From Promethearchaeota archaeon (GTDB lineage: Archaea; Asgardarchaeota; Lokiarchaeia; Sigyniarchaeales; SOKP01), in NCBI GenBank assembly GCA_030606485.1, contig JAUWGH010000013.1:8162-40161 (forward strand): DNA of 32,000 nt, given 5' to 3'. The position numbers and the translations under genes are program-made. A model generated the notes under the pieces. The model had not been told where the DNA came from, searched no databases, and worked only from the letters and a program-made list of their open reading frames with translations. Below are positions 13,181 through 26,841 of the stretch, piece by piece (the stretch's first letter is position 1; each line of letters starts with the position of its first letter).

Positions 13181-13861
13181 ATGGTAAGAATTGAAGAGGA
13201 TGGCCGAATACACATAAAAGTTTTATACTGGGGAATGGCTGGTTCTGGTAAAACTACTATTGTAGATACTTTACATCGTCTTACAAAAGAACAAAAATTA
13301 GATATGACACCCAAGGGAGAATTAAAAAAAATAGATATGGCAAATGGTTCTACTTTATACTTTGATAGAGGGATTTTTCAATCCACAAAAACCCCTAAGA
13401 TTTTTTACCATATTTATACAGTTGCAGGTCAAACTCAATTCTCTCCGTTAAGAAAGACGGTATTCGAAGGAACAGATGGAGTACTTTTCGTTGTGGATTC
13501 TCAAACTTTTCTTTTTGAAGATAATATTGAATCATTAAAAGAATTAAAAAAAGTAGCTCAAGGAGATTTAATAAAAGAAATTCCCATGGTTGTAATGCTT
13601 AATAAGAAGGACTTAGATGAAACAATTGGTGCCAGTGAATTTGAGCATATTTTAAAAGAAGAAGGATTATGGTATTCTCCCCCTAATAAATTATCTCTAT
13701 GGAATCCTATTATTTTTGAGACTTGTGCATTATATGATTTAAAAAGGGATATATATCGGAGTTTTTATGAATGTGCTAGAAGAACAGCACTATATCACAT
13801 ATATGGAAATGGAACCGCACCTATTGATGATGAATTTTTAAAAAAGTATGATAAAAAATAA
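13181..13861 (+). CDS. Small GTPase, MglA/Arf-like
   Basis: KVLYWGMAGSGKTT (G1), TLYFD (switch I), TVAGQ (MglA-type G3), GVLFVVDS, NKKD (G4), ETCA (G5). Confidence 0.85.
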   Translation: MVRIEEDGRIHIKVLYWGMAGSGKTTIVDTLHRLTKEQKLDMTPKGELKKIDMANGSTLYFDRGIFQSTKTPKIFYHIYTVAGQTQFSPLRKTVFEGTDGVLFVVDSQTFLFEDNIESLKELKKVAQGDLIKEIPMVVMLNKKDLDETIGASEFEHILKEEGLWYSPPNKLSLWNPIIFETCALYDLKRDIYRSFYECARRTALYHIYGNGTAPIDDEFLKKYDKK

Positions 13862-14990: not shown

Positions 14991-16481
14991 ATGAGTTACA
15001 AAAAACCTGATAATAAAGATTTGGAGGCTATGATTGGGATTGTAGGTAAAAATTACGCAACCGCAAACGATGCAATCTGTGCGTCCTATCTTAGTAAAAG
15101 CGTTATGGGACTCGAGGCTCAAATCCCTGACATCGTTATTCGTCCAAAATACCCTGAAGAAATTAGAAAAATTCTTGTCTATTGTTCTCAAGAGAAGATT
15201 CCAGTGTCGCCCATATCTGGAGGATTATCTGGAGGGTTCGCATGCCCATTAATAAGACCCGGAGGCGTTGTATTAGATTTAAGTAGAATGGATCGTATAA
15301 TAGAAATTGATACCGAAAATAGAATTGCAATAATTGAACCCGGAGTAACACTCGGTCAATTATGGGCATATATGCATAAGCACACCCCAGAATATTGCCC
15401 TCCCATTCCCGATGGAGCTCCTCCTTCATCAACCGTTATGGGAGATGCAATTGATAGAGGGTTCTCTTTAGTCACCTCATCCATGGGGCCTCAAGGAGAT
15501 ATATTCATGTGCGCAGAAGTAGTCATTCCAAGAGGTGATATACTCTATACAGGTTCGTGGGCTCTCCCTACAGCAAAACCATTTTATAAATATGGTATAG
15601 GACCAGATCTGTGGTCTACCTTAATGGGCTCACAAGGAACTATGGGGGTCATCACAAAAGTAGCAATTAAAATCTTTCCCCATCCAGAACATAAGACTGT
15701 TGTGGTTTGGGGCATGAGTAACCCACAGGATATGCAAAATTTAACATGGCAAATTGGAAATCAAGAATTTGGAATTGCACATCACTGTGTTATGGTTCAA
15801 GGTGGAAATTATCCACTTGTAATGACGCGCTGGCCTAAAGAGAAAGTTCCTCATGATTACGAATTTTACAAAGAAATTGGATTTTCTAAGTGGTGGATGA
15901 ATTTTGAAGTCTGGGCACAAACTCAAGAAGAATTAGAATATACTGAAAAAAGAATCGATGAATTTGCTAAAAAATTTATGGAATCTAAAGAATGCAAAGA
16001 TCCGAAATCTATAAAAAAACAAGAATTACATCCAAAACAAATTGCCAGTAGATTAAAGAAACCTAACAAAATTGCAATTCCATATGGCTACTGGGAAGCT
16101 GGATTTCTCTTCATAACCTGGTATACGCCATGGAAAGATTGTGCGGAATTTGCTGAAATGTACACTAAGGTCCTTGAAGATCATGGTATTGCACCGGTAA
16201 TGTGGATTGCAAGCGTTGAAAGATGTAGACAAGCTATTTGTATGCCAATAATTTGCTTTGACTCAACGAAACAAGAAGATTTTGAAAAAGTACAAGAAAT
16301 TAATCGTATCACCACTGAATATTCCATTAAAAGAGGTTGGTTAAATTATCGACCGGATCCTTACATCCATGCACCAATGATGTATTCTCAAGCAGGTACA
16401 TATTTGAAATATTTAAGAGAGGTTAAGAAAATGTTTGATCCTAATTTTATAATGCATCCAGGGAGGTTAATGCTTCCATAA
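14991..16481 (+). CDS. FAD-binding oxidoreductase (VAO/PCMH fold)
   Basis: IVIRPK, VLDLSRMDRIIEID, IIEPGVTLGQL, GDAIDRG, YKYGIGPD, GTMGVITKV, GWLNYRP, FDPNFIMHPGR. Confidence 0.9.
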   Translation: MSYKKPDNKDLEAMIGIVGKNYATANDAICASYLSKSVMGLEAQIPDIVIRPKYPEEIRKILVYCSQEKIPVSPISGGLSGGFACPLIRPGGVVLDLSRMDRIIEIDTENRIAIIEPGVTLGQLWAYMHKHTPEYCPPIPDGAPPSSTVMGDAIDRGFSLVTSSMGPQGDIFMCAEVVIPRGDILYTGSWALPTAKPFYKYGIGPDLWSTLMGSQGTMGVITKVAIKIFPHPEHKTVVVWGMSNPQDMQNLTWQIGNQEFGIAHHCVMVQGGNYPLVMTRWPKEKVPHDYEFYKEIGFSKWWMNFEVWAQTQEELEYTEKRIDEFAKKFMESKECKDPKSIKKQELHPKQIASRLKKPNKIAIPYGYWEAGFLFITWYTPWKDCAEFAEMYTKVLEDHGIAPVMWIASVERCRQAICMPIICFDSTKQEDFEKVQEINRITTEYSIKRGWLNYRPDPYIHAPMMYSQAGTYLKYLREVKKMFDPNFIMHPGRLMLP

Positions 16482-16493
16482 ATGGAAGGAAAA

Positions 16494-16499
16494 GGAGGT
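16494..16499 (+). promoter_or_regulatory. Shine-Dalgarno site GGAGGT
   Basis: GGAGGT ends 8 nt upstream of the ATG at 16508. Confidence 0.7.
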
Positions 16500-16507
16500 T
16501 AATAGAT

Positions 16508-17815
16508 ATGGAAAGATTAGAAGTAATGAAAAAAGAACTTTATCGTTGTATTCATTGCAAGGCGTGTAAATTTACATATAGTGGAGATCCAAGCAGAGAT
16601 GGAGTAGGAGAACATAAAGGAGTCCTATATGAAGGCATGGTTCCGAGCTGTCCAAGTGGTTTAGAATATGGCTGGGAGAGTTTTTGGAATGCCGGAAGAA
16701 TGTGGATTGCTCGTTGTATTTTGGAAGGAGATTTAGAGTTTTCGGAAAATGTCCGTGATACGATAATGCAATGCATAACTTGTGGGATGTGTGAAGTCCA
16801 GTGTGAAAATAAGGTTCCATGCGTTGATATTATTGAATCATTACGGGCAGCTTGTTATTTTTCTGGAGTGCCTCTTATCGAGAAACACGAATTAGTCTCA
16901 AAATTCGTAGTAGAAAGAAATAATCCTTATGGTGGAGATAAAGACAAAAGATTTGAATGGGTAAAAGAAAATGGGCTTGAAGAATACTTAGACAAAAAAG
17001 GTGCCAAAATTGCTTATTATGTAGGTTGCACTGCAAGTTATAGGCAAATAAATATTGCGGTCGCTACTTGTAAAATTTTTAAAAGATTAGGTATTGATTT
17101 TGCGTTGGTCACAAAAGAAGTTTGCTGCGGTAGCCCATTCTTTAGGATTGGAAGAACCGATATTTCGCAAGATTTAATGAATACAAACCTTGAACTTTTT
17201 AAAAAATATGAAATGGTTTTATTTTCTTGCGCTGGCTGCTATCGAACCTTTACAGTGGACTATCCGAAATGGATTAAAAAAGAATTACCCTTTAAAACAA
17301 ATCATGCTTTTGAGTTAATTTCAGATATGGTGAAAGATGGAAAAATTAAATTTAAAGAAAATCCAGAATTAAGAGGAAAAGTAGTCACATATCACGATCC
17401 TTGCCATACTGGTCGTCATTTTTTCATTGATGCTCAGAGAAAAATTATTGATGAGTCTAAGAATTTAATATTTGACTTAAGAAAGATTAATAAATGGAAA
17501 GAGGAATGGTTTGAGAAGCCTAGAATCATAATTCGTGCATTACCCGGTGTTAAATTTAAGGAGATGTACAGAATTCATGAGAATTCGTTCTGTTGTGGAG
17601 CAGGTGGTGGAGTTAGAGCGGGATATCCTGATTTCAGTTTAAAAACAGCAAGTTTAAGGCTTGATGAAGCTGAAGCCGTTGGTGCTGATATTATGTTAAC
17701 GGAGTGTCCATTCTGTTGGAGGAATCTAGATGATGCAAACACAATGTTCAATCACGGCATACCAGTTTATGGCATTTTAGAATTAATTGACAAATATGAT
17801 TTAATTGCAGATTAA
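16508..17815 (+). CDS. (Fe-S)-binding protein, HdrD/GlcF-like CCG-domain protein
   Basis: CIHCKAC...CP, CITCGMCEVQC, YVGC/VCCGSP/SCAGC, YHDPCHTGRH/FCCGAGGG/ECPFC. Confidence 0.9.
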   Translation: MERLEVMKKELYRCIHCKACKFTYSGDPSRDGVGEHKGVLYEGMVPSCPSGLEYGWESFWNAGRMWIARCILEGDLEFSENVRDTIMQCITCGMCEVQCENKVPCVDIIESLRAACYFSGVPLIEKHELVSKFVVERNNPYGGDKDKRFEWVKENGLEEYLDKKGAKIAYYVGCTASYRQINIAVATCKIFKRLGIDFALVTKEVCCGSPFFRIGRTDISQDLMNTNLELFKKYEMVLFSCAGCYRTFTVDYPKWIKKELPFKTNHAFELISDMVKDGKIKFKENPELRGKVVTYHDPCHTGRHFFIDAQRKIIDESKNLIFDLRKINKWKEEWFEKPRIIIRALPGVKFKEMYRIHENSFCCGAGGGVRAGYPDFSLKTASLRLDEAEAVGADIMLTECPFCWRNLDDANTMFNHGIPVYGILELIDKYDLIAD

Positions 17816-18039: not shown

Positions 18040-21000
18040 TTGGTTGAGCACAAAAACATGGCAGAGGTAAAAGATAATTCAGCATATCCGTATGTATCGG
18101 TATTCAAAAAGAAACCTTTTAGGTCATTTACTTTTGCCATAGAGGAAGATATAGGGAATTTTTTTATACCAGATTATAATAAGATCGTAGAATTTTACAG
18201 ATATTTTGAAAAAAATTTATTAAATTTTAAAAATCTGAATTTAGAGAATATATATTGGTTTCTTTTATTGGGGAAATATTTGAGGGAAGATATATCCATA
18301 AATCTCAAAAAGATCATTAATTTCATAACAGGATGTGAAATTTTTGAAGAAAATTCCCTAGGATTTAAGTTCTCTCCTGAATCTAAACAGAGAAAACCCG
18401 ATAATTGGTCAACCTTTTTTGCTTTAGCCAGTTTAAATTTATTAGGACAATTAGATGCTTATTTGTCTACACATCCAAGAGAAAATATAAAAGAAAAGAT
18501 TATTAATTTTATTTTTAAGACCAGAGATAAAGGGCGTTTTGTTCATTGTTTAAACAAAAATTGTACAATTTGCCAAAAAACAACGCCTATTAGAACAAGT
18601 TTTTTCGTAATAGAAGCATTAATTCTTCTAGATTTTGATATCAAATTACAACAAAATGTGTTTTTAAAATATTTTAATGATTTAAAAAAGAAATATTCTA
18701 TAATATTTCAATTACTGAGTCTTAAATATTTTGATTTAATTTCTGATATCGAGACTAAACACTTAAAATATTTACACCAATTTCAACAAAATGATGGTGG
18801 TTTTAGTTTTAAGGAAAATATTGGAAAAATTAATGAAACATTTTGGATTATTTATGTTTTGGAAAACTATTCCTGGTTGCTTGATTACAATCGTGGAAGG
18901 ATTTATTCTTTTCTCTCAACGAAAATCAAAGGCTTAAATCATGATTATAATTCATTTAATACCTTGAAATTGATGGATATTTCGAAAATTATTTTAATGT
19001 GCTCATTTATTTGGTCTAAATTTATTGAAGAAGTTGAGAGAACCGCTTTTAGACATTTGGATATAAATACTTCTTTAGACTTAAATATTTTGAAAAAAGA
19101 GTTAGGAATAAATGAGGGAATACCAGAAATTCTTAGATATATTAATCAGAAATATAACTTTAATTTAGAGATTTTAGATAATGAAATTGAATTTAATAAT
19201 TATTTAAGAAATTTAACTCGAGAAAATGCATATTTAGCTAAATCAGTATATGCGTCGATAAAAAATAATAGCGTCATCTATTTAAATAAACTTCTGAATG
19301 ACTATAAATACAATTACCCAAATAAGTCAAAAAAAATTAGGGATTTGATCCTTCTAATAGAAGATTTAATTTCGCACAACTTTTTCCAAGGTCGAATTCT
19401 TCGGAAAAACATGATTTTTTTTAGTAAATATTATTTATATAAAGACAAATTTATTTATGAAGTAATTAGAATTGATTCTGATATAAATAGCGAAGAAATA
19501 ATTAATGAAAAATTTAAATTGGAGGAAATCAAAACAGATATTTATAATATTATAATTAAATTAAAAGATACGCCAAAAAAGATTAAAGAAGAGATTAAAA
19601 GCCTAATACTTGTAAATGAATTCGACTTAGCAAAAGAAAGGTTAAAATATAATGTTAAAAATGCTTTAATGGAAGCCGATTTTTTAAATGAAAATATTGA
19701 AAATTCCTTTTCTACAGATTTTAAATACATAAATCCAAATTATCAGTTATCTAATGAGATAGTAGAATGGAACAAGAATTATTCGGAAATTCGAGGCAAG
19801 TATTTTAATTTACAAAATTATTTTAATGAAATTTTCAAGGAAAAAGAAAATTTAAAAAATTTCAAATTAATTTTGAATAAATTGGAAGACATAATTGACA
19901 AAAATGAACAAAAGATCTATTCTTTAATTGATCACTTTAAAAACTTATTTAGAGAATCCCTAGAGAAATCATATTCCAATGAAATTGTCCAACAATTATT
20001 AAAAGTATGCGAACATCTTAATTCAGAAATTATGAAATTAGATACGCAAATCTATGAAATATCACATAAAATTACTTCTAAAGAAAAATCCATTCAAAAA
20101 GTGCAAAAGAAGGTCATCTCAAAATGGATATCAATTAAAGAAGATGCAGATACGTTTATTGATTATTTCCTAGAAGGATTTAAGATTTATGAAAATGATA
20201 AAAATGAAATGAATGAAATAGAACAAAGTACTTCTATGATGATTAATGAACTCAAAAACACAGTTGATTTAATTTTAAAAGAAAAGAAATATCAACTGGC
20301 ACTGGAAATTATTGAAGAGAAAACTGAGAAGCATTTAAATGAAAAATTAGAATTAGTTAAAAATTCTCAATCGAAGTTAAAGGAAAATATGAAGAGTAAG
20401 AGAAAACTTTTTCTACTTCTAAAAAAAATTCAAGAGGATTGGAATAATTTAGAGCAAAAAATAATTGCGAAAATTGATAATTATCGAAATTCTATTGAAG
20501 AGAAAGTTATTCAAGAACGCGAACTTGAGAAATTAAAAGAATTTGACTATTTTATAAAAAGCAATATTTCTATTTTAAAAGAACAAATAAGAAAGAAAGA
20601 AAATGAATGTGAGAAAGATTTAAATTATCAAAAACTTAAAATCAACAATTTAAAATCTCGAATTGATAAACTTTCTAAAGAGTATTCAGATCTCAACGAA
20701 AAAGTTAAAAATAAAGTAAAACAACTTACTAAAATTGTAGTGGATTTTCAAGAGAAATCAAAGTTATGTATGTTATCATGGAATAAATTCCTAGATCTAT
20801 TTAAAAATAATTTGAATGATTTAAAAAATAAATATACAAACGAAATTATTAAACAAGAGATTCTGTCAACTAGCTCACAATCAAAAACAAATCTCATAAA
20901 ACTAGATGATTTAAAGAAAAAATTGAATCTTAAATGTAATGTTTTAATAGAAAGAATTAATGAAATGATAGAAATTACAAAATTAGACGGAGAATTGGAT

Positions 21001-22470
21001 GAAAATGACAAAGAACTTCTTGTTCACACTGATGATTATTATAAGAATAAACAATTGCGAAATTTTATTGAAAAACAAATAGAGAAATTAGGAAATGATT
21101 TCGGAAAATTAGTATCTCTATATGAATCTGCAATAAAAAATAAATCTCTTAAAGTTAATATTTTAGAAATTCAAAATAGAATAGAAGATTTTAATACACG
21201 GCAATTAAATTTAGAAAGAAGTTACCAAAATGAAATTTTAAAAATTGGTATAAATATAAATAGAGATGATTTCTTAGCGAATAGAAATTTTTTCAATACT
21301 GAACTTAATAGATATAGAGATATTATTGATGAAATTAACAAAAATACAATACTTTTTAATCAACTTATTAATTTCATCGGTGGAGTATTCAACTCTCTAA
21401 GAATCCAATTACGGGAATTAAATAAATCCTTTCAAGATGAAGCTGAAAAAATAAATGATTATGAGAAACTTTTAAATAATTTTAGCGGAAAAATCTTGAA
21501 ATTATCTGAAACTATGAGAGTTTCTTTCAATAAAAATGAGCAAGAAATTAGCACCACGATGATCCAGAATGAAAGTTTAAAAATATTAAATTCTGAAATT
21601 CGAGAAGAGCTCGTTTTTAATAAAAATTTATTTAATAAAGAATTTGAAGAATTTAAGGAAAATGTATCAAAAAAATTAAACTTGATTAAAAATGACGCTT
21701 TAAAAGAGAATTTAATGCATTTTATAAATAGAAACCAGGTTCTACTTAATCAAATGCTAGGATCCTTAGAACGAAAAGTTGAAGATAAATTAGAAATTAA
21801 AGATTTTAAATCTACAAGTATTATGGTTCAAAGAAGGGTTAAGAAAATACGTGAAAAATTAAAATATATTGAAAATGAAACATCTAAACTTAAAAAAGAA
21901 TTCAAAAAAGCATCTCCTACATTCAATACAAAAAATAAATTTCTTTTTGATGATTTCAAACATTTTCTGCATGAGTATGATGAGATAATTAATGAGAAAA
22001 TTAAAAAATTAGAGCAATTAATTCTAAAAAGCTATGTTGAAATTGTTATTAAAGCGGTAAAAGACGAATATATAACAATATCTTTTTTGGCGCACGAACT
22101 AAAAAATAAAAAAGATAAGATTCAAACATATATTATAAATATGATTGGTGCTAATGAATTACCTGGAAAATATGACCCTGAACTTCAGATTTATTTTGAA
22201 AATCTTGAGATTATTGATAATCTAAACCCGGCTCAGCTAAAAGTAATTAAAACTACTAATTTTAAACTCTATGAATTTCTTAACCGGTTACGTTTTTTTA
22301 CCAGTCAATATAGTTCCATACTTACTTTTATTGCCGCAATTTTCACAATAACATTATCCCTTTATAATTTATCTGGGGGAAATCCATTAACAGTAATAAT
22401 TCCTCTCTCTATTGCGATATTAATTACCTTATATCTTTTATTAAGAAAGCAAAAAGAAGAGAAAATATGA
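18040..22470 (+). CDS. Large coiled-coil protein with N-terminal prenyltransferase-like repeats, PCI-like winged-helix modules and a C-terminal TM hairpin; likely start ATG at 18058
   Basis: Uninterrupted 1476-aa ORF rich in K/E/N/I/L. Contains FQQNDGGFS...NETFW, IKLDDLKKKLNL...MIEITKLDGELD and ITISFLAHEL...MIGANELPGKYD, with two hydrophobic helices at the C-terminus. Confidence 0.7.
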   Translation: MVEHKNMAEVKDNSAYPYVSVFKKKPFRSFTFAIEEDIGNFFIPDYNKIVEFYRYFEKNLLNFKNLNLENIYWFLLLGKYLREDISINLKKIINFITGCEIFEENSLGFKFSPESKQRKPDNWSTFFALASLNLLGQLDAYLSTHPRENIKEKIINFIFKTRDKGRFVHCLNKNCTICQKTTPIRTSFFVIEALILLDFDIKLQQNVFLKYFNDLKKKYSIIFQLLSLKYFDLISDIETKHLKYLHQFQQNDGGFSFKENIGKINETFWIIYVLENYSWLLDYNRGRIYSFLSTKIKGLNHDYNSFNTLKLMDISKIILMCSFIWSKFIEEVERTAFRHLDINTSLDLNILKKELGINEGIPEILRYINQKYNFNLEILDNEIEFNNYLRNLTRENAYLAKSVYASIKNNSVIYLNKLLNDYKYNYPNKSKKIRDLILLIEDLISHNFFQGRILRKNMIFFSKYYLYKDKFIYEVIRIDSDINSEEIINEKFKLEEIKTDIYNIIIKLKDTPKKIKEEIKSLILVNEFDLAKERLKYNVKNALMEADFLNENIENSFSTDFKYINPNYQLSNEIVEWNKNYSEIRGKYFNLQNYFNEIFKEKENLKNFKLILNKLEDIIDKNEQKIYSLIDHFKNLFRESLEKSYSNEIVQQLLKVCEHLNSEIMKLDTQIYEISHKITSKEKSIQKVQKKVISKWISIKEDADTFIDYFLEGFKIYENDKNEMNEIEQSTSMMINELKNTVDLILKEKKYQLALEIIEEKTEKHLNEKLELVKNSQSKLKENMKSKRKLFLLLKKIQEDWNNLEQKIIAKIDNYRNSIEEKVIQERELEKLKEFDYFIKSNISILKEQIRKKENECEKDLNYQKLKINNLKSRIDKLSKEYSDLNEKVKNKVKQLTKIVVDFQEKSKLCMLSWNKFLDLFKNNLNDLKNKYTNEIIKQEILSTSSQSKTNLIKLDDLKKKLNLKCNVLIERINEMIEITKLDGELDENDKELLVHTDDYYKNKQLRNFIEKQIEKLGNDFGKLVSLYESAIKNKSLKVNILEIQNRIEDFNTRQLNLERSYQNEILKIGININRDDFLANRNFFNTELNRYRDIIDEINKNTILFNQLINFIGGVFNSLRIQLRELNKSFQDEAEKINDYEKLLNNFSGKILKLSETMRVSFNKNEQEISTTMIQNESLKILNSEIREELVFNKNLFNKEFEEFKENVSKKLNLIKNDALKENLMHFINRNQVLLNQMLGSLERKVEDKLEIKDFKSTSIMVQRRVKKIREKLKYIENETSKLKKEFKKASPTFNTKNKFLFDDFKHFLHEYDEIINEKIKKLEQLILKSYVEIVIKAVKDEYITISFLAHELKNKKDKIQTYIINMIGANELPGKYDPELQIYFENLEIIDNLNPAQLKVIKTTNFKLYEFLNRLRFFTSQYSSILTFIAAIFTITLSLYNLSGGNPLTVIIPLSIAILITLYLLLRKQKEEKI

Positions 22471-22491: not shown

Positions 22492-24039
22492 TTATACGTT
22501 TACTTTTCTTGCTTGCTCAATCACTTTCATTGGTGATTGTTGTACCGTTAAATCTTCATACATATTGTTTTCTTTTAATTGAGAGCTAATTACATCTCCA
22601 GAAACTCCCATAGTACGAAGCATTTGGTAACCATTTCTTATTACTGCTTTAATGAATCTAGGGACTTGGGGAAGCATCCAATTGAATTTGGAAAATGGAT
22701 TAATATAACGTTTTGCTATCATTTTGAGCCAATCTCTGCCCATATAATAATCAGCATAAGCTTCTGCCACTAACCCATACATCTCTTGATTGCTTAATTG
22801 TTCTGTTCTCATCATAGCATGGAAGAGATCGTAGTACTTATAGTTGTTGGTTGTAATCATATTTTTACTCTTCATCTCGTCGTAAAAGGGAGTGCCAGGA
22901 AAGGCGGTAATTGGTGTAAATTGTACAAAAGTCAAATTAAGCGATTTTGTGAATGAAATATTTTGACGGACCATTTCTTTGGTTTCACCAGGATAGCCAA
23001 TTATTACACCTCCAAAAATAGAAATACCATGATCTTGCAGCATTTTAACAACTTTTATTATTTTAGCAGGTGTAGTATTTATTTTACCCATAGCATCAAG
23101 GCTTTGTTGATGAACAGATTCAATGCCAAGAAATACTTGTCTCATACCTGCTTTTTGCATAAGATCAACTAACCATGGATTTTGGTAAAGTGTATCGACT
23201 CTTGATTGGCAGCTAAAATAAAATTTATTTGGAAACCCCGTCTGGATAATAGTATCTAAAATTTTTTTGGTACGTTTAGCTTTAATAGTAAAATTATCTT
23301 CACAGAAAAAAATAAAATTATGACCCAAATTCACATCATATATTTCTTGCATGATTCTTTTTACGCTTTTAGTTCGATATGAGATATGGTGGATGGGATC
23401 TTTCCACATTTTAATGATACAACAAAATTTACACGAGTGGGGGCATCCTCTTGATGTTTCAAGTTGAGCCACTCTTGTACCTAAATAAATATACTTTTTC
23501 CATTTTAATAAATCTCTTCTAGGCATAGGAAAATTATCTAAGTTCGTTTCTAATCTGCGATCCTTATTATGAATAACTTTCCCATTATTATTTTTATAGG
23601 AAACACCATCTATTTCTTTTAATGCTACTTGATTTAGATTTCCATCAATATAATCAATTATTTCTTTAAAAGTATGCTCACCTTCACCCCGAATTGCATA
23701 GTCAACGGATTGATGTTTAGCTACATAATCCGGATCGAGTGTTGGATGATATCCGCCAATAATTGTTGTACAACCCTGTTCTTTGGCCATTTGTGCAACT
23801 TCAAACGCGTGATCTATTTGGGGTGTCATACTTGTAATCGCAACAACATCATGACGGTTTAATTCGCGTCGAAATCTTTTTTCTTTAAATTTATCAATTT
23901 TGAAATCAAATAATTTTGCGTCATGTTCAGGAACCATAGCTGCGATTGAAATAAGACTCAGTGGGGGACCTTTAATGATCGCATCAAGCCCAGATTCGAG
24001 TCGAGCTGGATTAACATATAAGATTCTCATACTACTCAA
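22492..24039 (-). CDS. Cobalamin-binding-domain radical SAM protein; likely start ATG at 24030
   Basis: N-terminal B12-binding region (VVAITSMT, TIIGGYHPT, IRGEGE), then ETSRGCPHSCKFC (CxxxCxxC), EDNF, FLGIES, IIGYPGET. Confidence 0.9.
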   Translation of the reverse strand: MSSMRILYVNPARLESGLDAIIKGPPLSLISIAAMVPEHDAKLFDFKIDKFKEKRFRRELNRHDVVAITSMTPQIDHAFEVAQMAKEQGCTTIIGGYHPTLDPDYVAKHQSVDYAIRGEGEHTFKEIIDYIDGNLNQVALKEIDGVSYKNNNGKVIHNKDRRLETNLDNFPMPRRDLLKWKKYIYLGTRVAQLETSRGCPHSCKFCCIIKMWKDPIHHISYRTKSVKRIMQEIYDVNLGHNFIFFCEDNFTIKAKRTKKILDTIIQTGFPNKFYFSCQSRVDTLYQNPWLVDLMQKAGMRQVFLGIESVHQQSLDAMGKINTTPAKIIKVVKMLQDHGISIFGGVIIGYPGETKEMVRQNISFTKSLNLTFVQFTPITAFPGTPFYDEMKSKNMITTNNYKYYDLFHAMMRTEQLSNQEMYGLVAEAYADYYMGRDWLKMIAKRYINPFSKFNWMLPQVPRFIKAVIRNGYQMLRTMGVSGDVISSQLKENNMYEDLTVQQSPMKVIEQARKVNV

Positions 24040-24186: not shown

Positions 24187-25365
24187 CTAAATTTCAACGT
24201 CATACTCTAATTGGTCGATAATTTCTATTAGATCTAAGATTTCAAACCCCATATTAAATTTTTCATTTGCATCGCTTAAATTGGTTCTACAAAATGGACA
24301 TGTTGAAGATACAATAGATGCCCCAGTTTCTTTTGCTTCTTCTAATCTTTCCTGTGATATTTCAACGGACCAATCTGGATATCCAATCTTAACACCTCCT
24401 CCAGCACCGCAACACCATGCATGATTCCGATTTCGTCTCATTTCTACAAAATTTATTCCAGGAATCTGTTTATAAACATCTCTTGGGATTTCATATATAC
24501 CAGAATGTCTACCTAAATGACATGGATCGTGATAGGTCACAGTTTTATTGTAATTTGATTTGAATTTTAATTTACCTTTTTCTATTAATTCCTTAAGCAG
24601 TTCACAAGTATGATATAGTTTAAAATCATATACAATACCAAATTTTTTAAAATCATTCTTTAATGTTCGATAACACCCAGCACAGGAAGTAATTACCTTA
24701 GTTGCACCCGCTTCTTTTATCTTTTCTATGTTATAATTCATAAATTCTTTTGAAATCGAGATTTGACCCGTTCTTATCATGGGAGAAGTGCAACAATGCT
24801 CATCGATTAATGTAAAATTAATACTTGCCTTTTTGAGAAAGTTTAATGTTGCATCTCTTAAGGATTGTTGGCGATAATTTGAAGTGCATCCAATATAATA
24901 TACCCATTCTGCTTTATCGGGTAAATCATATTTTTTCTTTAGCTCTTCATTATCAGAATTTGGTTCATCATAAGGATTAAATTTTTTAATAGCTCGCTCA
25001 ATTAATTTTTCTTGGTTTTGGGCTGGACCAATATGTTTGACTGCTAACTCTCTCAAGGCTTCTATCATATCAACAATATAATCTGCATGTGGTGCTTGAC
25101 ATGCATCCATACACGCTCCGCAAGTAGGACATGCAAAAATGGCATCTTTTAATTCATCATTCCATTCTAAATCTCCATTTAATAACCCCCTTATAGTTCT
25201 TATCTTACCAGATGCCCAAAATGATTCAAATAGGAATTTTTCACCTGAAGGACATGATGGTTCAAAAGTCTTATAACTATATTTGCACGTACTACATTTT
25301 ATACACCGCTCAAAAGCCATTTCTAGATACTCTTTCCCCATTAAACTATTATCTATTTCTACCAT
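24187..25365 (-). CDS. (Fe-S)-binding protein, HdrD/GlcF-like CCG-domain protein
   Basis: CIKCSTC...CP, CPTCGACMDAC, YIGC/HCCTSP/SCAGC, YHDPCHLGRH/WCCGAGGG/TCPFC. TAAATG junction with the upstream gene. Confidence 0.9.
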   Translation of the reverse strand: MVEIDNSLMGKEYLEMAFERCIKCSTCKYSYKTFEPSCPSGEKFLFESFWASGKIRTIRGLLNGDLEWNDELKDAIFACPTCGACMDACQAPHADYIVDMIEALRELAVKHIGPAQNQEKLIERAIKKFNPYDEPNSDNEELKKKYDLPDKAEWVYYIGCTSNYRQQSLRDATLNFLKKASINFTLIDEHCCTSPMIRTGQISISKEFMNYNIEKIKEAGATKVITSCAGCYRTLKNDFKKFGIVYDFKLYHTCELLKELIEKGKLKFKSNYNKTVTYHDPCHLGRHSGIYEIPRDVYKQIPGINFVEMRRNRNHAWCCGAGGGVKIGYPDWSVEISQERLEEAKETGASIVSSTCPFCRTNLSDANEKFNMGFEILDLIEIIDQLEYDVEI

Positions 25366-26841
25366 TTATGTATTCCACCTCCCTGGATTAAAGATACCAT
25401 TTGGATCCATACATTTTTTTATTTTTTCAAATAAGTTTAACCAGCCAGGATTAATTTTTTTACGCATTTTTTCCGTCATCCAGGCAGGTGTTTTATAAGG
25501 GATACAACCCAATTCTAAACAAGTATCAACGATTTCTTCTAATAACTTATGAATTCTTTCCTCATCTTTAAATTTATCAAAGCGTATTATTGGTCTAAAT
25601 ATGCAATAATGTGAATATTTCATGCTTTTCATGTATAGGTACAACGGAACATTATATTTTTTAAAAAGTTTATCTACTTTTTGTGATAATTCTTCTATTT
25701 TATGAGAGGGAGCATAACTACCAAACCATGTTAAACCAGAATATTCAAATAAAGATAAAACCATTGATGGTAAATCTACTAAACTACGAAGTCTTAAGTT
25801 AAATAATTTTACAAATTCATCAAAATCTATTGAATATACTCTAATACCTTTTTGTTTAATTTTCTCAACTGTATTTAAATATATCTCCTTTTTTGCTTTA
25901 TATTCATTCTCTGTATGAGCCGTAATTATGGAAATCGACATCATTCTTGGCTCTCCAGGAAATGTTTTAGGTTCCGGAATTCCACAGCACATTTTAACTA
26001 TTTCAATGCTTCCAAGGGCAATATCATCAATAACCTCCGTTCTTCCAATTTCTCTACTAATTTCTCCTACATCCTCCAAATTAAAAATTATTAATGCTTC
26101 AGATTTACGAATTGATTTCTTTGGCCATAATTGAACTGCACATTTTGTTATTAATCCGGTCATACCTTGCCAATTTACAAATAATCCCATTAAATCGGGC
26201 ATTGGATAACGACTCCACCAACTATCGGGGTCAGCTTCCTCTTTCCCATAAAAACATGAACCTATCCGTGCGATGTCGCCATCAACTGTAATAACTTCTA
26301 AACCGTTAATAGAATCCCCCATTGATCCGATTTTACATGACAAATTATTCATACCGCTTAACATAACATTTCCTACTACACCTGCATAGGGTGGTGCAAA
26401 AGGATAATTATATCTAAGGTGCGGATAATTTTCATCTAAATGCTTCTTTAATTGTCCAAATGTCACTCCGGGTTCTAGTAAAGCATACATCATATTTTCA
26501 TTTATATGTAAGATTTTATTCATTTTTTTACCGAAATCTACGATAATTCCTCCCCGTTCCGGTATTGTGAGGCCTCCAACATTATTTCCAGAGATATAGG
26601 GAACAATAGGGATTACATTTTGATTACAATATTTAACTAACTCTACTAATTGTTCTTTATTTTCTGGGATTACAACAAAATCCGGCATATTCGGAGCGCA
26701 TTCGGTCATATCGTAAGAATAAGGATATAAATCAACACTTTTACTTGATACATTCTCCTTTCCAAAAATTTCAACTAACTTTTTATAAACTTCTTCTTTA
26801 TTGACTTTTTCAAAAATATTTGTTTCTTTTGAGATTGTCAT
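25366..26841 (-). CDS. FAD-binding oxidoreductase (VAO/PCMH fold)
   Basis: PYISGNN, IVDFGKKMNKIL, YALLEPGVTFGQL, GLEVIT, GMTGLITK, GCIPYKTP, MDPNGIFNPGR. Confidence 0.9.
   Translation of the reverse strand: MTISKETNIFEKVNKEEVYKKLVEIFGKENVSSKSVDLYPYSYDMTECAPNMPDFVVIPENKEQLVELVKYCNQNVIPIVPYISGNNVGGLTIPERGGIIVDFGKKMNKILHINENMMYALLEPGVTFGQLKKHLDENYPHLRYNYPFAPPYAGVVGNVMLSGMNNLSCKIGSMGDSINGLEVITVDGDIARIGSCFYGKEEADPDSWWSRYPMPDLMGLFVNWQGMTGLITKCAVQLWPKKSIRKSEALIIFNLEDVGEISREIGRTEVIDDIALGSIEIVKMCCGIPEPKTFPGEPRMMSISIITAHTENEYKAKKEIYLNTVEKIKQKGIRVYSIDFDEFVKLFNLRLRSLVDLPSMVLSLFEYSGLTWFGSYAPSHKIEELSQKVDKLFKKYNVPLYLYMKSMKYSHYCIFRPIIRFDKFKDEERIHKLLEEIVDTCLELGCIPYKTPAWMTEKMRKKINPGWLNLFEKIKKCMDPNGIFNPGRWNT

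Follow-up and report, generated by a model that had tools for sequence, protein, structure and literature searches.

A giant protein of Lokiarchaeia predicted to join a prenyltransferase-like toroid, spectrin-like helical bundles and PCI-type winged helices to a membrane anchor

What is the giant gene on contig JAUWGH010000013.1 of a Promethearchaeota archaeon built to do? The stretch of 32,000 nucleotides analysed here (the window) contains, on its forward strand, a long open reading frame (ORF) that a first-pass annotation, made from the sequence alone, had read as a eukaryote-signature-like membrane tether or scaffold with a lipid- or isoprenoid-binding head. That the frame exists and is uninterrupted was borne out, as was the annotation's observation as a whole; its interpretation is partly supported, because the domain calls held while the coiled coil, the number of winged helices, the isoprenoid-binding head and the likeness to eukaryotes needed correction. 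We propose that the giant protein is a non-enzymatic, cytoplasmic, membrane-anchored rod that serves as a spacer or scaffold and presents a ligand-binding head, a reading to which we give roughly an even chance. Positions below are those of the window, and residues are counted from the TTG at 18040, so that Met7 is the ATG at 18058. Because homologues, of 1465-1475 residues, begin at Met7, this ATG is probably the true start. The gene is A+T-rich (GC 0.23-0.25 vs 0.30-0.39 in neighbouring genes), and the K/L/I/N/E-rich composition of the protein fits this low GC.

The family is specific to Lokiarchaeia, single-copy and near-universal there. A word-indexed search returned 99 relatives, nearly all of 1460-1510 residues and 37-40% identical over their full length, from metagenome-assembled genomes labelled Lokiarchaeota or Promethearchaeota; more distant relatives, at about 23% identity, carry the label Helarchaeota. 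In source records, members appear as "hypothetical protein" or "conserved membrane protein of unknown function". Conservation extends over the full protein length (mean column identity 55%) and peaks in an N-terminal peptide (residues 13-30), a Cys/His motif, and residues 481-570 and 1321-1420. When 400 genomes of the phylum were surveyed with a profile of the head, the giant gene was found in 148 of the 160 other Lokiarchaeia genomes: 129/134 in its own family, 1/1, 12/14 and 0/4 in three other families of the order, and 2/3, 2/2 and 2/2 in three further families of the class. The roughly 240 genomes outside the class yielded only two marginal matches at the level of the toroid (E about 1e-6). 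The source genome (3.75 Mb, 13 contigs, 100% complete) carries one copy and no paralogue of either half, and three closed genomes of a sister family (4.3-6.0 Mb) also carry the gene. A HMMER profile of the first two winged helices and adjoining bundle (WH1-WH2-bundle), run against 1.84 billion representative proteins, gave only 53 matches; each is either a full-length member or a fragment in which the module keeps its position, and every named source is labelled Promethearchaeota or Helarchaeota.

The far end of the protein is its head. An AlphaFold2 model of residues 1-600, computed from an 81-sequence alignment, has a predicted local distance difference test score (pLDDT) of 88.8 and a predicted template-modelling score (pTM) of 0.84, which indicates that this region is one rigid unit. 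The three GxF repeats that the annotation had picked out (G108-F109, G164..F167 and G253-G254-F255) belong to an alpha/alpha toroid assembled from the PFTB (GGF) repeats that mark prenyltransferase beta subunits: Pfam PF00432 is matched in 81 of 81 members, and structural alignments to prenyltransferase beta are collinear over the whole toroid. A long helix (residues 308-342) is also present, and two winged helices pack on the toroid ahead of the first three-helix bundle. The resemblance of the head is not specifically eukaryotic. In the ESM Atlas, stand-alone bacterial and archaeal toroid proteins reach template-modelling scores (TM) of 0.70-0.71, vs 0.66 for eukaryotic RabGGT beta, and eukaryotes have no counterpart of the family as a whole, so that the label "eukaryote-signature-like" is only weakly justified. 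An Atlas feature search with residues 340-600 gave no usable match. Two copies of residues 335-610, predicted as a complex, scored 0.00, a value that carries no weight for or against a homodimer. Sequence searches of the PDB with the single sequence and with a whole-protein profile returned, beyond weak stretches of RabGGT beta and DDRGK1, only compositional helical matches (apolipoproteins, keratin, designed bundles). The conserved N-terminal peptide is left unplaced by AlphaFold2, with pLDDT below 50 for residues 1-22, and is a candidate docking motif.

Whether the head could be an enzyme depends on its metal ligands. In RabGGT beta the catalytic zinc is held by D238, C240 and H290, residues with which the inner helices of pairs 5 and 6 begin; the motif PDVCYSWW appears in the HMMER alignment, and its numbering agrees with the first two. 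Because the toroid alignments are collinear, the equivalent positions fall at about residues 263-265 and 301-310. Columns 263 and 265, at the start of the pair-5 inner helix and equivalent to D238/C240, are variable (N/D/S/E/T), and columns 301-310, at the start of the pair-6 inner helix, hold no conserved His or Cys among family sequences. Judged by this alignment, the canonical prenyltransferase Asp/Cys/His zinc site is not conserved in the toroid. Its sole conserved metal-ligand cluster is the HCx4Cx2C insert in the hairpin of repeat 3, also noticed by the annotation, in which all 81 sequences keep H169, C170 and C175, and position 178 holds Cys (64 sequences), Asp (10) or His (5), so one of these three in 79 of 81. 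The motif is retained in the most divergent members; one divergent member (P0137) lacks the entire repeat-3 hairpin. Since it offers four protein ligands, the motif suggests a structural rather than a catalytic zinc. Walker A (its absence already remarked upon), DxDD and DDxxD motifs were not found in the giant protein sequence, and the toroid thus lacks the DxDD of class II terpene cyclases of the squalene-hopene type. With the catalytic zinc site apparently lost, no terpene-cyclase motif and a His/Cys motif that looks structural, the head would be a binding module, not an enzyme. Of the proposed isoprenoid-binding head, the prenyltransferase-type toroid stands, but the zinc ligands are missing and isoprenoid binding stays conjectural.

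It is also possible that the protein is a membrane-tethered enzyme in which the relocated His/Cys zinc activates a thiol or binds an isoprenoid substrate, for prenylation or thioether chemistry, and the rod only positions the active site. The structurally nearest relatives of the head are catalytic prenyltransferase beta subunits, the H169/C170/C175 hairpin sits at the same barrel end as the catalytic-zinc repeat loops of those enzymes, and LanC sets a precedent for adjacent Cys-His zinc ligands on an alpha/alpha toroid. We nevertheless consider such an enzyme unlikely: neither the canonical Asp/Cys/His ligands nor the basic residues before them in RabGGT beta are conserved, a zinc with four protein ligands (H, C, C, C/D/H) would be saturated, as is typical of structural sites, P0137 does without the hairpin, the DxDD and DDxxD motifs are absent, and the alpha-subunit repeats (PPTA, PF01239) that a prenyltransferase partner would carry give only two matches in the genome, of 23.1 and 21.8 bits, below the cut-off of 29.5.

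Several related observations concern the same folds. Both sub-threshold PPTA matches lie in one 854-residue frame (G000:C3:67153-67749, minus strand; L010/L011) and may be mere TPR-like repeats. The genome encodes two further PF00432 proteins, one of 388 residues (90 bits; L007 1201-2367, plus strand, G000:C10) with an N-terminal signal anchor and a C-terminal transmembrane helix, probably extracellular, and a separate one of 1029 residues (L093 2777-5866). We rejected such proteins as paralogues, as they do not share the giant-protein architecture. One Helarchaeota-labelled member (P0146) has an extra insert of about 65 residues with multiple CxxC motifs between toroid repeats 2 and 3 (residues ~100-165), which Pfam reads as zinc ribbons; the family HCx4Cx2C is kept beside it.

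The remainder of the protein is largely helical. In an AlphaFold2 model of residues 470-1476 (82 sequences; pLDDT 81, pTM 0.37), in which local structure is confident and global shape is not, the helical region is predicted to consist of seven intramolecular, spectrin-like three-helix bundles, the pattern being one of helix C in one repeat running into helix A of the next. Long helices (62-75 residues) alternate with short ones (27-40 residues) at a period of 102-112 residues, and the layout is four bundles (residues 484-947), a third winged helix (WH3), three bundles (residues 998-1339) and a fourth winged helix (WH4). The heptad-rich stretches of the annotation are evident as a 3.5-residue hydrophobic periodicity (z 10.4 in residues 484-947 and 6.8 in residues 998-1339) that is absent in the toroid. 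By hhalign, residues 614-988 align to residues 1005-1380 over 370 columns (probability 95%, E 2.4e-8) with a score of 69; reversed and block-shuffled controls score 23-50, and we therefore conclude that a unit of three bundles plus a winged helix was tandemly duplicated in the rod. The best structural matches of the rod are tandem spectrin and plakin repeats; Pfam Spectrin (PF00435) found no match at E <= 1 or in per-member scans.

At least two PCI-like segments had been called in this region, and Pfam PCI and AlphaFold2 place the two where the annotation put them; the predicted winged helices of the protein number four. The PCI winged-helix subdomain (PF01399) is matched in 56 of 82 members (best E 4.2e-9); in this protein the match at residues 923-993 scores 23.7-26.8 bits and that at residues 1314-1384 scores 21.0 bits, against a cut-off of 22, with positions 11-80 of the 84-position model covered. 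Foldseek and Atlas lists for the C-terminal model are mostly PCI proteins, with weak whole-model matches (E 3e-3 to 0.1, TM about 0.1-0.2). Foldseek of the same model against the PDB found nothing at E <= 0.001, and an Atlas feature search with residues 900-1400 found no usable match. Long three-helix bundles are predicted before each winged helix, where PCI proteins have a TPR/HEAT-like solenoid.

These similarities raise the alternative that the PCI/DDRGK-type winged helices are the working parts, forming a membrane platform of the UFL1/DDRGK1 or PCI-complex kind that docks a ribosome or multi-subunit complex, with the toroid as an accessory. WH3 exceeds the Pfam PCI cut-off and has a weak match to the winged helix of DDRGK1 (E 0.0075-0.025), WH2 has a faint DDRGK1 match (E 0.13), the Atlas entries closest in shape are PCI proteins together with a UFL1/DDRGK/PCI cluster from Promethearchaeota, and a UFL1-like protein is encoded in the same genome. 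An Asgard origin has been reported for UFL1 and DDRGK1, possibly with a UFM1-independent role (PMC10183829), which is consistent with such a platform. On the other side, these similarities are weak (TM about 0.2, and no significant E-value against the PDB), three-helix bundles rather than a TPR-like solenoid are predicted before the winged helices, the anchor of DDRGK1 is N-terminal, and no MPN/JAB or UFL1-like gene is linked to the giant gene in the window or the related loci examined. A docking platform is, on balance, doubtful. Two relatives have a Prok-JAB gene about 8 kb from the giant gene. The UFL1-like frame, of 795 residues and encoding a winged-helix repeat protein, was matched at G000:C1:449005-449844 (minus strand; L094/L095; Pfam E3_UFM1_ligase 55.9 bits, PCI 41.6 bits), and a 986-residue frame with a PCI-type winged helix (26.4 bits; G000:C10:343644-343775, plus strand; L096) is possibly another large helical or winged-helix protein.

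The C-terminal two-helix anchor with a basic tail was correctly called by the annotation. Basic residues flank the membrane hairpin on both sides (NRLR before the first transmembrane helix, RKQKEEKI after the second), and the giant protein has no N-terminal signal sequence. From these features and the Cys/His metal motif we infer, by the positive-inside rule, that the whole N-terminal part of about 1400 residues should be cytoplasmic.

The same anchor, together with the strong heptad periodicity, underlies the annotation's comparison with golgin-type coiled coils, and a homodimeric tether of this kind, capturing vesicles or other membranes, might also draw on the small GTPase genes of the genome, among them an Arf-family gene 4 kb upstream. 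The seven three-helix bundles predicted by AlphaFold2 speak against a golgin-like two-stranded coiled coil: the helices are folded back with high confidence in antiparallel fashion with a spectrin-like period, they break at regular, conserved positions, and winged helices interrupt the rod, while the GTPase gene is not adjacent and its linkage recurs in only one related locus. We regard a golgin-like tether as very unlikely. That amphipathic helices spread on a lipid surface in the manner of apolipoproteins, with the toroid binding an isoprenoid lipid, is more improbable still, for the profile matches to apolipoproteins A-I and A-IV are marginal (E 0.001-0.05) and driven by K/E/L-rich composition, and bundle packing is predicted with high confidence.

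In the rod-and-head arrangement that we favour, the C-terminal hairpin would fix the giant protein to the inner face of the cell membrane, and a rod of seven spectrin-type bundles interrupted by two PCI/DDRGK-type winged helices, arising in part from the tandem duplication, would rise from this anchor to about 40-50 nm if fully extended (an estimate assuming ~5 nm per bundle). At its far end, a rigid head (residues 1-605), which zinc would stabilise, comprising the flexible N-terminal peptide, the prenyltransferase-beta-derived toroid, two winged helices and the first bundle, may hold a peptide or a ligand that bears an isoprenoid, within the toroid funnel or close to it. The protein could thereby keep a bound partner a set distance away from the membrane surface, or organise it along that surface. 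Several points weigh against this proposal. The low pTM of the rod model allows a folded-back as well as an extended shape; the catalytic positions were mapped by collinear repeat order and motif alignment, not by residue-level superposition; and a metal motif that never varies, placed at the funnel end of a barrel like that of prenyltransferases, could be catalytic. Among public runs, those listed with the gene are DNA runs from cold-seep and marine-sediment metagenomes, and no RNA run is among them. We further speculate that the protein is an element of an archaeal membrane skeleton, in which the head reads a lipidated or peptide ligand and the spectrin-type rod couples the membrane either to the cytoskeleton or to some large particle in the cytoplasm. 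This is decidedly unlikely; if true, it would make the protein a prokaryotic analogue, or a forerunner, of nesprin- or spectrin-type linkers, and its head a non-catalytic stage of the prenyltransferase beta fold.

Table 1. Predicted features of the giant gene and its product (window positions; residues counted from TTG 18040).
Feature	Residues	Position	Strand	Basis or remark
Whole ORF		18040..22470	+	1476 codons from TTG, uninterrupted; likely start ATG 18058, giving 1470 residues
N-terminal peptide, K-S/T-A-Y-P-Y-I-T-x-F-K-K-E-P-F-K-S-F	13-30	18076..18129	+	at least 90% conserved at 14 of 18 positions
Alpha/alpha toroid, six helix pairs	42-330	18163..19029	+	nearest: protein prenyltransferase beta subunits
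HCx4Cx2C motif, HCLNKNCTIC (H169, C170, C175, C178), hairpin of toroid repeat 3	169-178	18544..18573	+	probable zinc site
WH1 and WH2, winged helices packed on toroid	345-390, 394-478	19072..19473	+	AlphaFold2
First three-helix bundle, most conserved stretch, belongs to rigid head unit	484-605	19489..19854	+	AlphaFold2, conservation
Rod A, three spectrin-like three-helix bundles	607-947	19858..20880	+	AlphaFold2, periodicity
WH3, PCI/DDRGK-type winged helix	952-995	20893..21024	+	Pfam PCI (residues 923-993), AlphaFold2
Rod B, three spectrin-like three-helix bundles	998-1339	21031..22056	+	AlphaFold2, hhalign, periodicity
WH4, PCI-type winged helix	1344-1386	22069..22197	+	Pfam PCI (residues 1314-1384), AlphaFold2
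C-terminal membrane hairpin: transmembrane helix 1, short SGGNP loop, transmembrane helix 2, basic tail	1425-1444, 1450-1472	22312..22467	+	sequence, AlphaFold2

The genomic context points to no partner. With an A+T-rich spacer of about 240 bp upstream and a convergent gene 21 bp downstream, the giant gene looks monocistronic, and neither the window nor related loci contain a conserved operon partner; neighbours vary. An upstream pair encoding a flavin adenine dinucleotide (FAD) oxidase and a CCG protein recurs within the family, and the downstream neighbour is a B12-radical S-adenosylmethionine (SAM) gene in the window and a DEAD/ResIII helicase in relatives. In the window, two such FAD_binding_4 and CCG/4Fe-4S gene pairs flank the giant gene, at 14991-17815 (plus strand) and 24187-26841 (minus strand), and the B12-binding radical SAM gene (22492-24039, minus strand) converges on it. 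About 220 bp upstream on the same strand, 24 of 80 relatives carry a gene for a bitopic membrane protein of about 200 residues (for example L016 1152-1781, plus strand), which is absent from the window; the product has N- and C-terminal transmembrane helices and an NxS/T-rich middle, and a peptidase C13-like gene often precedes this gene. The Arf-family small GTPase gene lies at 13181-13861 (plus strand; Pfam Arf 57.8 bits), about 4 kb upstream of the giant gene, and in one related locus (L006) a small GTPase gene is likewise found upstream of the FAD/CCG pair, so that there is partial synteny in the order GTPase, FAD oxidase, CCG protein, giant gene. The Arf-family protein was considered as a prenylation client and rejected, as it has no C-terminal Cys motif. 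Within the giant gene, opposite WH3, an 87-codon antisense ORF (20748-21011, minus strand) is most likely spurious.

The annotation's impression that no described system has this domain combination holds for Pfam, the PDB, the literature searched and the 1.84 billion representative proteins; no description of the family was found in papers on Asgard structural proteomes, or in the literature searched on Asgard prenyltransferases, PCI proteins, spectrins or tethers, and the combination appears undescribed. Lokiarchaeia include the first cultured Asgard archaea, and their unusual cell architecture, with long protrusions and an actin cytoskeleton, is central to ideas on the origin of eukaryotes. 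The giant protein is a plausible structural component of that architecture and gives studies of localisation and interaction in cultured strains a concrete target. It joins the prenyltransferase beta fold, PCI/DDRGK winged helices and spectrin-like repeats, all three prominent in the biology of eukaryotic cells, in a combination without eukaryotic or bacterial counterpart, and so shows Asgard lineages assembling such modules independently.

Comparison with known systems places each part of the protein. With the prenyltransferase beta subunits (FTase, GGTase-I and RabGGT/GGTase-III beta; PF00432) it shares the alpha/alpha toroid fold, which prokaryotic stand-alone toroids match equally well, but it has HCx4Cx2C in repeat 3 in place of the Asp/Cys/His zinc site, its toroid is continued by about 1150 more residues and a membrane anchor in the same chain, and alpha-subunit repeats occur in the genome only below threshold. 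In relation to PCI proteins of the proteasome lid, COP9 signalosome and eIF3, WH3 and WH4 cover almost the whole winged-helix model with scores near threshold, but they are predicted to follow three-helix bundles, not a TPR-like solenoid, and no MPN partner or complex context was seen in the loci compared. DDRGK1 is likewise membrane-anchored with a long helix and a weakly matching winged helix, whereas the anchor of the giant protein is C-terminal. Golgins, too, are long helical proteins, anchored in a membrane at the C-terminus and binding at the distal end; the giant protein differs in its predicted intramolecular bundles and in having a two-helix hairpin instead of a single tail anchor, and no GRIP, GRAB or Rab-binding motif was identified in it.

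A further comparison is with the membrane-anchored spectrin-repeat rods. EzrA is a bacterial membrane-anchored rod of this type with an N-terminal anchor and binds FtsZ; among eukaryotic spectrin-repeat rods, which include spectrins and plakins, nesprins combine a KASH peptide with calponin-homology heads. The giant protein is predicted to have in common with them tandem three-helix bundles of about 105 residues, continuous helices and membrane attachment, but it lacks a Pfam Spectrin match, bears a toroid as its head and has winged helices breaking its rod. It also departs from the KASH arrangement of a single C-terminal transmembrane helix followed by a luminal KASH peptide, having two transmembrane helices and, after the second, a tail of 4-10 basic residues. 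Each of the folds, and the idea of a membrane-anchored rod exemplified by EzrA, nesprins and golgins, was thus known already; what is new is the combination of folds, the altered metal site and the strict restriction of the family to Lokiarchaeia.

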